The notes beneath the pieces were generated by a model that was not told the DNA's origin, ran no database searches, and saw nothing but the letters and a program-made list of their open reading frames with translations. The position numbers and the translations under genes were made by a program. A DNA stretch of 56,203 nt from a virus (lineage: Duplodnaviria; Heunggongvirae; Uroviricota; Caudoviricetes), in IMG/VR virus record IMGVR_UViG_2778260992_000008, positions 1 through 56,203 of that record; one strand, written 5' to 3'. The number at the start of each line of letters is the position of its first letter. The stretch's first letter is position 1. Shown piece after piece: positions 37,617 to 43,975 of this stretch.

Positions 37617-38228
37617 TTAGTTCCAGTGGCAAGCATTTTTCACTTTGTTGATATGTTTTTCTAAGCCTTCGATGTTGAATGTTGCTTTTTCGATATAGCC
37701 CGCTTCCGGCAATGTTTCGATAATGAATTGTTTCTCGTTAAGCATTTTTTTAATCATCGGGATGGCTTTTTTGCCGTTCCATAATCCCAGGGCTTTATAG
37801 TTAGTTGCCCGTTGCCATTCTGCTTTCACCGCTTTATGTTCCCCGATCCGGTAGGTAACTTGGGTGGTATCGCCAGCATCCGCAATCATGTTATGCCAGG
37901 CTACAAACATTTTTGTTGTATTGGCTTTGCATTCGATAACTAATACCGGTTTATTTTTCTCTTTTGCTTTCAGTGCCGGGAAATCATCAAGCTGACCGTT
38001 AAATTTTACCGCTTTGACATGTAGCTGTACATTGGGTGTATCGTGCATATCGTCCTTACCTTCCCACACGGCCCACTGTTTCCCAATGTTATCCCGTTCC
38101 ATTTCTTGATGTTTTTCAGCTATTTCTTTTTCAAATTGTTTAATATTTTCAAGGCTTTTTGCTTGTTGTTCGCAACCAACCAGCCCAACCAGCGCCGCCA
38201 TTATTGCCACTTTCGCTAACCGTTTCAT
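37617..38228 (-). CDS. lipoprotein (accessory gene, opposite strand, inside tail module)
   Basis: Signal peptide plus lipobox MKRLAKVAIMAALVGLVGC; ATG 38228 with GGGG RBS; own promoter and terminator. Confidence 0.6.
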   Translation of the reverse strand: MKRLAKVAIMAALVGLVGCEQQAKSLENIKQFEKEIAEKHQEMERDNIGKQWAVWEGKDDMHDTPNVQLHVKAVKFNGQLDDFPALKAKEKNKPVLVIECKANTTKMFVAWHNMIADAGDTTQVTYRIGEHKAVKAEWQRATNYKALGLWNGKKAIPMIKKMLNEKQFIIETLPEAGYIEKATFNIEGLEKHINKVKNACHWN

Positions 38229-38276
38229 AAAACACCCCGTTTGCCTTGAATTACTAACCACTTCCTATAGCTTCTT

Positions 38277-41237: not shown

Positions 41238-41242
41238 AATAA

Positions 41243-41270
41243 CCCCCGGCGAAAGCTGGGGGTTTTCTTT
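41243..41270. terminator. bidirectional hairpin terminator after tape measure gene
   Basis: CCCCCGGC-GAAA-GCTGGGGG followed by TTTTCTTT; T-rich on the opposite strand too. Confidence 0.6.
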
Positions 41271-41448
41271 ATTCAACTTCGTCATTTTTAAATTCGTTGT
41301 TTACATAAAGCTGTAATGCGCTTATCAGTTCGGCGGCTTGCTTTTTGTCTATGACGATTAATTCGCAGTCACTTTCAAGCCATAATCTTTCGTCATATTC
41401 AATGCTAAGATTAATCCGCCGACAACCTTCCGTTTCATGAATAATCAT
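41269..41448 (-). CDS. small acidic protein (59 aa)
   Basis: MIIHETEGCRRINLSIEYDERLWLESDCELIVIDKKQAAELISALQLYVNNEFKNDEVE; RBS GGGGGAAATA; ends at the bidirectional terminator. Confidence 0.35.
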   Translation of the reverse strand: MIIHETEGCRRINLSIEYDERLWLESDCELIVIDKKQAAELISALQLYVNNEFKNDEVE

Positions 41449-41539
41449 TATTTCCCCCTATAATCGACCATTCCGCGCAATATATCCCCTTCCGAAAATT
41501 ACCAACCAAATATTCCAGATCTCCCGCCATGTAAATTTA

Positions 41540-41689
41540 TCATCTTCCATATCTCACCCCATCGCGCTTATAAGGCTTGTTATCAGCAAACGGGATTAAC
41601 GCATCGTTTGCCACCTGGCGATTAAACCAATCTTTCAGGACAACCAGGGAAAACCGGATGCCGTAGCTATGTAATTCGTGCCATTTCAT
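41540..41689 (-). CDS. small hypothetical protein (49 aa)
   Basis: ATG overlaps stop of upstream 84-aa gene (ATGA). Confidence 0.25.
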   Translation of the reverse strand: MKWHELHSYGIRFSLVVLKDWFNRQVANDALIPFADNKPYKRDGVRYGR

Positions 41690-41940
41690 TTATGACACCC
41701 CCGCACGCCGCATAATTCATTGTATTTATGATGCTCAACAATCAACCAAACTTTTAGATCCTGGCTGTAAAGCCGCCAATCAGGGTTGATATCGAATTTA
41801 AAACCATAACCATCTCGTAACTTTTTGGGGTGGGCTTCTTTATTTAGGAAAGCATTTAATAAAGCCTTACCCTTTTTGATGATCCGGTCCTGCGCGTTTT
41901 TTTGTGCTTTCAAATTTTTATCAATCGCTACCAGTTTCAT
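41686..41940 (-). CDS. hypothetical basic protein (84 aa)
   Basis: ORF in track; second gene of a tightly packed minus-strand cassette. Confidence 0.45.
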   Translation of the reverse strand: MKLVAIDKNLKAQKNAQDRIIKKGKALLNAFLNKEAHPKKLRDGYGFKFDINPDWRLYSQDLKVWLIVEHHKYNELCGVRGCHK

Positions 41941-41958
41941 AGCCCACCCCCATCATCC

Positions 41959-42126
41959 TTAGTTGACCGCTTTCAGGTAAAAATCCCGGTATTCGTTTTC
42001 CTTCACGTTCATGTAGAATTGGCCCATTTTAAATGCATCGTCGAAGCCTTTAACGATCGCCACTTCCACTTGTTCGAATGCGTCGTTAAGCATCACGACC
42101 GCGTAGTGTTTATCGTTGCGTTTCAT
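41959..42126 (-). CDS. small hypothetical protein (55 aa)
   Basis: ATG 42126 preceded by AAGGAGG; track ORF 41959-42201 begins further upstream. Confidence 0.4.
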   Translation of the reverse strand: MKRNDKHYAVVMLNDAFEQVEVAIVKGFDDAFKMGQFYMNVKENEYRDFYLKAVN

Positions 42127-42295
42127 CTTGGGCCTCCTTTGTTGGTACTGCTTTTCTTCTTGCTTTCTGTATACATCTTGTTGCGTCCTGTGTGAAGCCA
42201 TTTTGTAAACTGGTTATAATTCTTGTGATGAAGTTCTCATTTTTCGCGTAGAAGCGCGTAAAGATGTACACAAAATGTAACTTATAGGGGGAATT

Positions 42296-42659: not shown

Positions 42660-42845
42660 ATGTACGGGATGTGCGTTAAGACTGGCGATGAATCATTTAC
42701 GCTATTCGAAGACTATCAGATCGATAATCTCACGGTGATGAGTGATAAAGGGGATATCTGGTATTTGCATGACTACGGCGACGGGTATGTGGGATGCAGA
42801 TCTTACGAAGGGAAGGAATATTTATTCTTGATTGAGGGCGTTTAA
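42660..42845 (+). CDS. hypothetical small protein
   Basis: 61-aa ORF with RBS AAGGGGG. Confidence 0.4.
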   Translation: MYGMCVKTGDESFTLFEDYQIDNLTVMSDKGDIWYLHDYGDGYVGCRSYEGKEYLFLIEGV

Positions 42846-42933: not shown

Positions 42934-42940
42934 AATAACA

Positions 42941-42961
42941 CCCCGCCGAAGCGGGGTTTTT
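42941..42961. terminator. bidirectional hairpin terminator
   Basis: CCCCGC-CGAA-GCGGGG followed by TTTTTCG; between convergent plus and minus genes. Confidence 0.6.
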
Positions 42962-42965
42962 CGTG

Positions 42966-43103
42966 TTAGAAGTTCATGTGCATCAAGCCCATTGGGTGAG
43001 CGTGCGCCATGTTCTCAGCTATTGCGCACCAATCCCAATCCGCAGCGTGCACGCCAAATACTATCAAGCCCATTGCGATTAGCGCTAAAACTTCGATTTT
43101 CAT
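42966..43103 (-). CDS. small secreted His/Met-rich peptide (45 aa)
   Basis: MKIEVLALIAMGLIVFGVHA signal-like N-terminus then ADWDWCAIAENMAHAHPMGLMHMNF; RBS GGGGTGAACC. Confidence 0.35.
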   Translation of the reverse strand: MKIEVLALIAMGLIVFGVHAADWDWCAIAENMAHAHPMGLMHMNF

Positions 43104-43114
43104 GGTTCACCCCA

Positions 43115-43186
43115 TTAATTCAGAAAGGCATAAACGATGGCAATCGCGCCAGCCACTACCAAAACATTTTCGATTACTTCATCCAT
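43115..43186 (-). CDS. small hydrophobic peptide (23 aa)
   Basis: MDEVIENVLVVAGAIAIVYAFLN; RBS GGCGGTGA. Confidence 0.3.
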   Translation of the reverse strand: MDEVIENVLVVAGAIAIVYAFLN

Positions 43187-43195
43187 AATCACCGC

Positions 43196-43444
43196 CTATA
43201 AGTTATCACGCAGATAATTAACGCCCTTGTCAGTGACGAATGAATGATTAACCTGGTTTTCATCCGTCATAATAATGAATAACTTTTCCTGTAAGTATTT
43301 TGCTTTTGGGTACAGCGTTAAACAGACCTGATACAGTATCCCGCGCTCAATCAGCAAATCAATAAATTCGTGCTCATGATAACCGATGAGACGGGCGGCC
43401 TGTTTCAACGTGTACACATAATCACCGTGATTGCGCCGCCCCAT
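43196..43444 (-). CDS. hypothetical protein (82 aa), possibly DNA-binding
   Basis: ORF in track; YTLKQAARLIGYHEHEFIDLLIERGIL has HTH-like character. Confidence 0.4.
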   Translation of the reverse strand: MGRRNHGDYVYTLKQAARLIGYHEHEFIDLLIERGILYQVCLTLYPKAKYLQEKLFIIMTDENQVNHSFVTDKGVNYLRDNL

Positions 43445-43452
43445 GTTGCCGC

Positions 43453-43806
43453 CTATTTATCAAAGCAACTTAAATTATCGATACAGAAGTCTTTAGCAGC
43501 ATTTTCGTATTCGCGTTTTGCTTCAGGATCGTCAGCCGGGAAGCCTTTTGCGTGGATTTCACCAGGGCAAGACTGATCCATAGAGTCTGCAAATTCAACA
43601 TTGACGTTAAAGTTAATATCTTTCGGGTTCATATCTTCCACCTTCTCGGCTATTTGTACCGGAGTTATTTTGAATTCCCTGGCGCGCCCGAAGAAGCGAA
43701 CAAGTTTTTCTCCTTCCTCGACTGCCATTTCGTAACTGTCATGTAAGCCGTAACCTTCCCAATCCTTACTGCCTGCCATCCATACATCGAGACGGTATTT
43801 TTGCAT
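43453..43806 (-). CDS. hypothetical acidic protein (117 aa)
   Basis: ATG 43806 four nt after upstream stop; track ORF extends to 43860. Confidence 0.4.
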   Translation of the reverse strand: MQKYRLDVWMAGSKDWEGYGLHDSYEMAVEEGEKLVRFFGRAREFKITPVQIAEKVEDMNPKDINFNVNVEFADSMDQSCPGEIHAKGFPADDPEAKREYENAAKDFCIDNLSCFDK

Positions 43807-43807
43807 T

Positions 43808-43975
43808 TTACTGATCCCCGCTTTTAATCGGTTTAATCCGGTAGCCCAGGACGCGATCATCTTTTTCCGATAGGTCGAGGGCCGTTTCTAGGGCGTCGCC
43901 AGGGTTATCGAATTCAGCCTCGATATCACGCCCGTTACTCATGAATAAGGTCAGTCGCCATAGTTTATCGTTCAT
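43808..43975 (-). CDS. small hypothetical acidic protein (55 aa)
   Basis: MNDKLWRLTLFMSNGRDIEAEFDNPGDALETALDLSEKDDRVLGYRIKPIKSGDQ; RBS AAGGGCGCGGG; first gene downstream of minus-strand promoter. Confidence 0.35.
   Translation of the reverse strand: MNDKLWRLTLFMSNGRDIEAEFDNPGDALETALDLSEKDDRVLGYRIKPIKSGDQ

Follow-up and report, generated by a model that had tools for sequence, protein, structure and literature searches.

We analysed a stretch of 56,203 nucleotides (nt), positions 1 to 56,203 of IMG/VR virus record IMGVR_UViG_2778260992_000008 (Caudoviricetes), referred to here as the window, and in it a cassette of small minus-strand genes flanked by the tape-measure gene and the lambda-M-like minor tail gene (gene M). 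The window represents a temperate Escherichia coli phage or prophage of the mEp021-like (mEpimmI) group. Across the cassette region it shares approximately 80% DNA identity with mEp515, mEp010, mEp044, mEp021 and their kin and 92% with a prophage of E. coli RM9245, and the same interval holds small reverse-strand genes in all of the matched mEp phages and in the RM9245 prophage. The mEpimmI phages, reportedly prevalent in the human gut, have a published description that, supplements included, does not mention the cassette genes (PMC11893012).

A first-pass annotation of this DNA had placed four tightly packed open reading frames (ORFs) of 55, 84, 49 and 59 codons here, and all four are present where it put them. 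It had also correctly described the strong ribosome-binding site of the first gene (AAGGAGG, 6 nt before the ATG), an ATGA junction at which the ATG of the 49-codon ORF lies on the TGA of the 84-codon ORF, and a last gene that ends at a bidirectional terminator, the 59-codon ORF stopping 4 nt before the hairpin at 41264..41241. The gene count has to be revised, as the 91 nt that separate the 49- and 59-codon ORFs are filled by a fifth conserved gene of 30 codons. The cassette thus comprises five minus-strand mini-genes and is approximately 97% coding. Its features are listed below from the leader to the terminator, with gene products named by their length in amino acids (aa) and with the computed isoelectric point (pI), the ratio of non-synonymous to synonymous change (dN/dS) or the non-synonymous (pN) and synonymous (pS) differences.

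42127..42295, minus strand: non-coding leader/promoter region of 169 nt, divergent from tail gene M.
42262-42241, minus strand: putative imperfect inverted repeat, TTTACGCG-N6-CGCGAAAA, read from the sequence.
42229-42224 and 42205-42200, minus strand: candidate sigma-70 promoter, ATCACA, 18-nt spacer, CAAAAT, an 8-of-12 match read from the sequence; predicted transcription start near 42193-42198.
42139-42133, minus strand: Shine-Dalgarno motif AAGGAGG, inside the leader.
41959..42126, minus strand: 55-aa gene, mildly acidic product, pI 5.7; dN/dS 0.07; phrog_29810 (labelled function unknown).
41686..41940, minus strand: 84-aa gene, the anchor of the cassette, basic product, pI 9.8; dN/dS 0.07; Pfam PF24732.
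41540..41689, minus strand: 49-aa gene, basic product, pI 9.9; dN/dS 0.11; optional cargo between the 84-aa and 30-aa genes.
41458..41550, minus strand: 30-aa gene, Trp-rich product MEDDKFTWREIWNIWLVIFGRGYIARNGRL, pI 8.3; pN 0.085 against pS 0.80.
41269..41448, minus strand: 59-aa gene, acidic product, pI 4.4; dN/dS 0.22; phrog_13627 (labelled function unknown); last gene of the operon.
41241..41264, both strands: bidirectional intrinsic terminator, common to the tape-measure gene (plus strand) and the cassette (minus strand).

The layout that had been proposed, a small basic protein followed by acidic ones, is wrong, since the computed pI runs 5.7, 9.8, 9.9, 8.3 and 4.4 in gene order. The ORFs are conserved as coding sequence in related phages. 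Synonymous and non-synonymous differences were counted in all three frames over four to nine related loci per ORF, drawn from eight annotated relatives; dN/dS was low in the own frame of the 55-, 84-, 49- and 59-codon ORFs (values above) and roughly 1 or more (0.98-1.9) in their shifted frames at the same loci. This purifying selection was reconfirmed in a larger sample of up to 40 loci. A G-rich Shine-Dalgarno-like motif precedes every ORF of the cassette, and PHROG families are known for three of the products (55, 84 and 59 aa). The 55-, 49-, 30- and 59-aa proteins gave zero matches in Pfam, NCBIfam and PADLOC, and none of the defence models of PADLOC-DB 2.0 matched any of the five proteins at an expectation value (E) of up to 1.

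The cassette has a guanine-plus-cytosine (GC) content of 0.42, compared with 0.48-0.62 in the flanking tail genes, and phages with an M protein of only 71-75% identity do not have it. Because of its low GC content and its absence from these more distant phages, we regard it as an acquired accessory unit. Together with its own terminator and its insertion between conserved genes, these are the features of a phage moron, the promoter being an element that we infer from the conserved leader and the weak 8-of-12 candidate. It is firmly established that the cassette is a five-gene, reverse-oriented accessory operon; it lies in an ordinary mosaic region, antisense to the transcript of the late tail genes.

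Among 36 distinct relatives, the leader showed a mean pairwise identity of 85%, rising to 89% over the promoter-proximal 96 nt, whereas the synonymous sites of the genes that adjoin it were 48-63% different. The contrast between these values indicates that the leader is under constraint, as would be expected for a regulated promoter or operator. An Rfam scan of the region gave sub-threshold terminator-like matches only. At the other end of the cassette, the terminator hairpin has a folding energy of -21.5 kcal/mol on the plus strand (z = -5.0) and of -15.5 to -16.4 kcal/mol on the minus strand (z = -1.9), where it contains one A-C mismatch; a U-run follows on either strand. On the minus strand the fold does not clearly outperform shuffled sequences. 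The annotations of mEp515 and mEp010 also put terminators at this position.

The distribution of the genes within the mEp lineage was assessed in three samples: 44 viral contigs obtained with the 84-aa protein, 80 with tail gene M and 43 with the 55-aa protein. From the second of these came 41 mEp-like contigs whose choice via gene M is unbiased as to the cassette. All 41 carry the 84-aa gene and 39 carry the 55-aa gene. The latter was found only in mEp-like contigs, where it always adjoins the 84-aa gene (43/43), and in most relatives it encodes 51 aa. A minimal cassette, which consists of a 55-aa-type gene and the 84-aa gene only, is present in E. coli O157:H7 LSU61 and in many contigs. It is firmly established that the 84-aa gene is core to the lineage, and that the 55-aa gene is a lineage-specific and almost constant companion. 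The comparison with related prophages suggested by the first-pass annotation bears out a near-constant pair of 55- and 84-aa genes; the genes downstream are variable cargo.

The three downstream genes are exchangeable. The 49-aa gene shares the ATGA overlap with the 84-aa gene upstream and overlaps the 30-aa gene downstream by 11 nt; it was found in four of the 41 loci sampled through gene M, as well as in the window, RM9245, mEp515 and E21845, and its product has no family in Pfam, NCBIfam, PHROG or PADLOC. The 30-aa gene is conserved in eight of eight annotated relatives, and six mEp phage records list it as a hypothetical protein. Among the 41 relatives it is full length in 22, reduced to a 13-codon remnant in nine and absent in nine, and two of the full-length copies contain premature stops. 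A homologue with 69% identity occurs in unrelated viral contigs of 140 kilobases (kb), at L146:325-435, 2.6 kb from a homologue of the 84-aa gene and beside an mEp515_88-like gene, which is the same neighbour as in mEp515. Because of this separation and this neighbour, the 30-aa gene is probably an independent small gene of a shared phage pool. The 59-aa gene is present in 12 of the 41 relatives, with a paralogue of approximately 47% identity in five more; it may be kept, swapped for the paralogue, duplicated or missing, and in E21845 it is a pseudogene. A PDB profile search with its product gave nothing significant.

Insertions downstream of the 84-aa gene are nested in relatives, where the 49-aa gene may be inserted and an HNH endonuclease gene may in turn lie between the 84- and 49-aa genes. 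An insertion hot spot is located just downstream of the 84-aa gene, equivalent to approximately 41540-41690 of the window (L001 3717-4223, L005 2002-2484 and L002 1681-3015). The HNH endonuclease occupies it in mEp515, E21845 and contig L045, and in mEp021 it houses genes for a treble-clef zinc-finger/CapR protein and a T5orf172 (GIY-YIG-like) protein. We considered whether the 49- or 30-aa gene might be a remnant of the inserted HNH endonuclease, and rejected this as neither shows similarity to it.

The 84-aa protein is the one product with a match in Pfam. It matches family PF24732, named ParE_like (ParE-like toxin domain), with 44.1 bits against a gathering cut-off of 24.4 (E 2.1e-11), residues 19-74 aligning with positions 2-66 of the 67 in the profile, and the family is also matched by 35 of 35 homologues. 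The protein belongs to phrog_1525 (E 4e-19; labelled function unknown), and homologues with 75-93% identity in RefSeq E. coli genomes bear the PGAP label "ParE family toxin-like protein". Pfam and RefSeq thus already have a name for the gene family, of which the cassette protein is a further member. No other Pfam family was matched by the protein or its homologues at E up to 10, the canonical RelE and ParE models included; no NCBIfam or PADLOC model matched the protein, and PDB sequence searches returned no ParE chains.

A relationship with HigB emerged when the alignment of the 84-aa family was compared by hhalign with an alignment of six annotated HigB toxins from plasmid higBA loci, among them one that agrees with the PDB HigB fragment at all 42 residues compared (100% identity). 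The match had a probability of 90.4%, E 1.4e-6 and a score of 36.9 over 41 columns; the reversed control had a probability of 0.05%, and 20 column shuffles scored at most 19.5. Residues 33-73 of the 84-aa protein align with HigB 50-91, pairing H37 with His54, P38 with Pro55, K40 with Lys57, W55 with Trp72, R56 with Arg73 and Y73 with Tyr91. The active-site residues of HigB are His54, Arg73, Asp90, Tyr91 and His92 (PMC5027501). Two positions of the 84-aa family, R56 and H70, are invariant, and three more (P38, Y73 and N74) come close to it. A PDB profile search with 15 diverse family members found HigB (4px8) marginally, at E 0.55, in the same register as hhalign; this was the sole sensible match in PDB sequence and profile searches with the 84-aa protein, which gave nothing significant. 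Comparison by hhalign with single E. coli K-12 toxin and antitoxin sequences (toxins RelE, YafQ and HigB) was not significant. Taken together, these profile comparisons support homology of the 84-aa protein with the HigB branch of the RelE/HigB/ParE superfamily, and we regard its place in the superfamily as firmly established. A conserved functional site in the family is likely, and RNase chemistry is plausible. The profile search for RelE, ParE or HigB folds that the first-pass annotation had proposed was thus productive as regards PF24732 and the HigB alignment, and not as regards the canonical RelE and ParE models or antitoxin folds.

A translated search of a phage collection identified PF24732 members, all confirmed, at 25-37% identity in N4-like Vibrio phages, jumbo phages (K64-1 and the PBECO4 type), Sortsnevirus and temperate Hendrixvirinae (OS31). 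Some of them already carry labels, namely "YafQ-like" in K64-1 and "HigB-like" in OS31. The closest outgroup homologue, with 49% identity, was found by a scan of viral contigs in the 140-kb contigs L146 and L147. We found no paper that cites PF24732 by its accession, and the name of the family is a fold-based label. Some relatives follow ParB-family genes (L148 1456-1704, from pEB102, and L056 1483-1701, from Serratia phage OS31), the order in the pEB102 backbone, that of an integrative and conjugative element (ICE) or plasmid, being ParB, DUF2857, the PF24732 relative and STY4528. This linkage hints at a possible role in the establishment of mobile elements rather than in classical addiction.

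The 55-aa gene ends 18 nt before the 84-aa gene on the same strand, and the two share one conserved leader and one terminator. A PDB profile search with the 55-aa protein gave nothing significant; a match to a PUR-like motif (PDB 3n8b, E 1.6) was taken as chance. When the 55-, 49-, 30- and 59-aa proteins were compared with HigA, RelB and DinJ by hhalign, the probability was at most 2%. AlphaFold2 modelled the 55-aa protein as a single long helix of 52 residues, but its five models disagree: the predicted local distance difference test (pLDDT) score is 84 in two of them, while another two stay below 50. Such a helix is compatible with a partner-dependent helical peptide and proves nothing. A longer reading of the gene (80 codons from an ATG at 42201, 68 aa in relatives) and an upstream ORF were both rejected, as the frame is broken or shifted in relatives. 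If the 84-aa protein has a partner in the cassette, the candidate would be the mildly acidic product of this upstream gene and not that of a downstream one.

The reading that we favour, tentatively and with somewhat less than even confidence, is that the 55- and 84-aa genes form a toxin-antitoxin-like pair in the order antitoxin then toxin and that mRNA or ribosomes are the target of the 84-aa protein. The cassette would be an autonomous moron operon, facing backwards between the tape-measure gene and gene M, with its own conserved leader and bidirectional terminator, and the pair would be expressed from the prophage. The 84-aa protein, a divergent RelE/HigB/ParE member, would be a HigB-like effector of the endoribonuclease type that acts on mRNA or on the translating ribosome, as its conserved Arg56, His70 and Tyr73-Asn74 suggest. 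The 55-aa protein would be its lineage-specific partner, which most likely binds and tempers it in the manner of an antitoxin that lacks a DNA-binding domain, and the 49-, 30- and 59-codon genes would be independent cargo that rides on the same transcript. The layout of the pair is typical of type II modules: a small acidic product is encoded upstream of a basic one across an 18-nt gap, with a single leader and a single terminator, and the near-constant company of the two genes fits it. RNase activity, toxicity, binding by the 55-aa protein and expression in lysogens are all steps that we infer.

A series of results weighs against this reading. Two distinct contigs, L013 and L015 (= L083 and L080), derive from an isolate genome in one case and a metagenome in the other (IMG/VR UViG_2561511241_000005 and 3300045988_046788). 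They have no 55-aa gene, and in both an intact 84-aa gene with a Shine-Dalgarno motif of its own follows the leader directly; because two phage contigs do without it, the 55-aa gene is doubtful as an indispensable antitoxin. The 55-aa protein also evolves more slowly than the 84-aa protein (pN 0.049 compared with 0.105), and an antitoxin that evolves more slowly than its toxin is the reverse of the usual pattern. Searches in Pfam, NCBIfam, PADLOC and PDB and comparison with HigA, RelB and DinJ gave no antitoxin, DNA-binding or defence family for it. In the HigB comparison, the equivalents of His54, Asp90 and His92 are not conserved in the 84-aa family: the first is His in the window protein and variable even in close relatives, and the other two are Lys/Glu and Asn. 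AlphaFold2 modelled the 84-aa protein poorly (pLDDT 54), and a fold search with the model stayed at noise level. A scan for consensus sigma-70 promoters at a 9-of-12 threshold reported no site in the leader, and no strong promoter was found. Distant PF24732 genes sit singly in arrays of small genes, including those of strictly lytic phages, with no recognisable antitoxin domain in the neighbours examined, and no 55-aa-like neighbour was found in L146/L147 or in 11 other contexts. The family is rare on plasmids: a set of 72,556 records gave 23 with a match, most of them replicons of a phage-plasmid-like kind or with an ICE backbone, compared with 471 for a 44-residue fragment of HigB. Any stronger claim is barred by the natural loss of the 55-aa gene from some genomes, by distant homologues that stand alone and by the absent antitoxin signature, and the toxin-antitoxin reading as a whole is partly supported and unproven. 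Of the guess to this effect in the first-pass annotation, the presence of a toxin-superfamily protein, with its PF24732 match and HigB-like profile, can be retained; the pairing stays putative, with several results contrary.

It is quite possible, at somewhat lower confidence, that the 84-aa protein is instead a solitary effector, an antitoxin-free and RegB-like protein of the RelE/HigB fold that is mild or restricted in its substrates, serves the control of phage or lysogen expression and has no relationship to its neighbours. PF24732 members occur singly, among small early genes, in at least ten contexts (strictly lytic N4-like and jumbo phages, temperate Hendrixvirinae and an ICE backbone) with no recognisable antitoxin among the neighbours examined, and the 84-aa gene is universal in its lineage, like a core gene, and viable without the 55-aa gene. 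In addition, sequence variants of the 55- and 84-aa proteins show no co-variation, and T4 RegB provides a precedent for a protein of the RelE/YoeB fold with no known antitoxin (PMC3014915). Against this account, the 55-aa gene lies directly upstream in 96% of genomes, is under very strong purifying selection and never occurs apart from the 84-aa gene, and minimal cassettes keep exactly these two genes. Reverse placement inside the late operon with an own terminator is typical of genes expressed in lysogens, where an unchecked RNase would be costly.

We consider it improbable that the 84-aa protein is an inactive protein of the toxin fold with another role, be it anti-defence, as a decoy for host antitoxins or for sensors of defence, superinfection exclusion, or regulation through antisense interplay with the late tail transcript. 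The loss of conservation at three of the five catalytic equivalents of HigB (His54, Asp90 and His92) and the tolerance of the gene without its partner would fit such a role, and the reverse orientation resembles the "non-contiguous operon" of phi80 Tai (PMC11364771). Across very divergent phages, however, Arg56 and His70 do not vary and Pro38, Tyr73 and Asn74 hardly do, which points to a conserved active or binding site, and no defence or anti-defence family was matched in PADLOC.

Slightly less probable still, in our view, is a three-part module of the 55-, 84- and 30-aa products, in which the 30-aa peptide is a second modulator or the real one and either small protein suffices. The 30-aa gene is under strong purifying selection and follows the 84-aa gene by 11 nt wherever the 49-aa and HNH insertions are absent. 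Both genomes that lack the 55-aa gene carry it, no sampled genome lacks both small genes, and the only outgroup with a close homologue of the 84-aa protein also has a homologue of the 30-aa gene, within the same 3 kb. Yet the absence of double-negative genomes is uninformative because only approximately 0.8 would be expected, and approximately 45% of relatives have lost the 30-aa gene or keep the 13-codon remnant, besides the two copies with premature stops. In the 140-kb contigs the homologue stands 2.6 kb away and is paired with the mEp515_88-like gene as in mEp515, and the 30-aa protein is unlike the antitoxins HigA, RelB and DinJ.

That the ORFs are chance occurrences in a non-coding spacer or a decayed remnant, as their very short length and the missing family assignment of three of them might suggest, is effectively refuted by frame-specific purifying selection in each, a Shine-Dalgarno-like motif before each, the 97% coding density, PHROG families for three and independent calls in the annotations of related phages and genomes.

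There is also a more speculative scenario, which we think unlikely. PF24732 would be a phage-centred family of HigB-like ribosome or mRNA endonucleases that are normally antitoxin-free, analogues of RegB, and the mEpimmI copy would have been domesticated into an abortive-infection or addiction module of the lysogen by a new antitoxin of 51-55 aa that lacks a DNA-binding domain and would be among the smallest known. Antisense late transcription would silence the unit once the prophage itself turned lytic, in the manner of a "non-contiguous operon".

Should the 55-aa/84-aa pair work as a toxin-antitoxin or abortive-infection module, a very small type of antitoxin would be gained, and a core gene of the mEpimmI phages would have a function. 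If the 84-aa protein acts alone, it would represent a widespread and apparently uncharacterised family of phage-borne RelE/HigB-fold effectors without antitoxins, lytic phages included. Either way, "toxin" labels for PF24732 should be read as a statement on fold and not on function. The practical weight of these results is modest, as the family is already in Pfam and RefSeq and the remainder of the cassette is a typical mosaic accessory region.

Other small genes were found in the same tail module. Tail genes M and L are separated by a second reverse-strand cassette (42963-43975, minus strand; bidirectional terminator at 42940-42957). It includes a 45-aa ORF, genes for products of 82 and 135 aa, the former with a KilAC/ANT domain (PF03374), and a gene for a 55-aa protein labelled "transporter" by PGAP. 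Directly after gene M is a 61-aa ORF (42660-42845, plus strand) that is conserved in mEp phages (mEp021_70) and has no family assignment. Just upstream of the tape-measure gene, a 214-aa gene (37617-38261, minus strand) matches the VasI/TagO family (PF11319, E 8e-17), which is associated with type VI secretion and is unusual cargo for a phage tail module.

HigBA is among the closest known systems as regards the toxin. HigB, of the Proteus vulgaris Rts1 type, is a ribosome-dependent mRNA endonuclease of the RelE/ParE superfamily. The 84-aa protein resembles it in profile over the catalytic core, with Pro, Lys, Trp-Arg and Tyr positions in common, and both proteins are small and basic and found on mobile elements. 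However, the 84-aa protein matches no HigB, RelE or ParE model in Pfam or NCBIfam and its family has an additional conserved C-terminal tail, GV(K/R)G(A/C)HK. No HigA-type helix-turn-helix antitoxin lies downstream of the 84-aa gene, the sole candidate partner being upstream. Type II modules in general share with the cassette two adjacent and co-directional small genes, here with an 18-nt gap and co-transcription predicted from one leader and one terminator. The cassette differs from them in that the partner is not recognisable as an antitoxin by its domains, the 84-aa gene is maintained without the 55-aa gene in two contigs, and the pairing is absent in divergent homologues, the 55-aa gene being confined to the mEp group.

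Two phage systems are relevant to the alternatives. T4 RegB is a phage endoribonuclease of the RelE/YoeB fold that processes mRNA and has no known antitoxin (PMC3014915). It may serve as a functional model for the solitary PF24732 members of lytic phages, with no sequence relationship expected, although it is an early gene of a lytic phage and not an accessory gene of a prophage. In phi80, taiEcA and atiEcA form a "non-contiguous operon" in which genes set against the late structural operon are expressed from the prophage (PMC11364771). In architecture, the cassette is likewise reversed within the late operon and has a terminator of its own, low GC and a patchy gene content, whereas TaiEcA is a protein of 26 kDa that blocks tail assembly and is far larger than any cassette product.

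As a pair, the 55- and 84-aa genes may be set beside PaaA2-ParE2. This is a prophage module of E. coli O157:H7 in which a small and largely helical antitoxin without a DNA-binding domain accompanies a ParE-type toxin. PDB chain profile searches revealed no sequence similarity for either the 55- or the 84-aa protein, and the cassette differs further in having no separate paaR-like regulator gene. At 51-55 aa, the 55-aa protein is also even smaller than PaaA2. Nevertheless, both systems are borne on prophages and have the order antitoxin then toxin, and the 55-aa protein, if it is an antitoxin, would likewise be very small, helical and without a DNA-binding domain.

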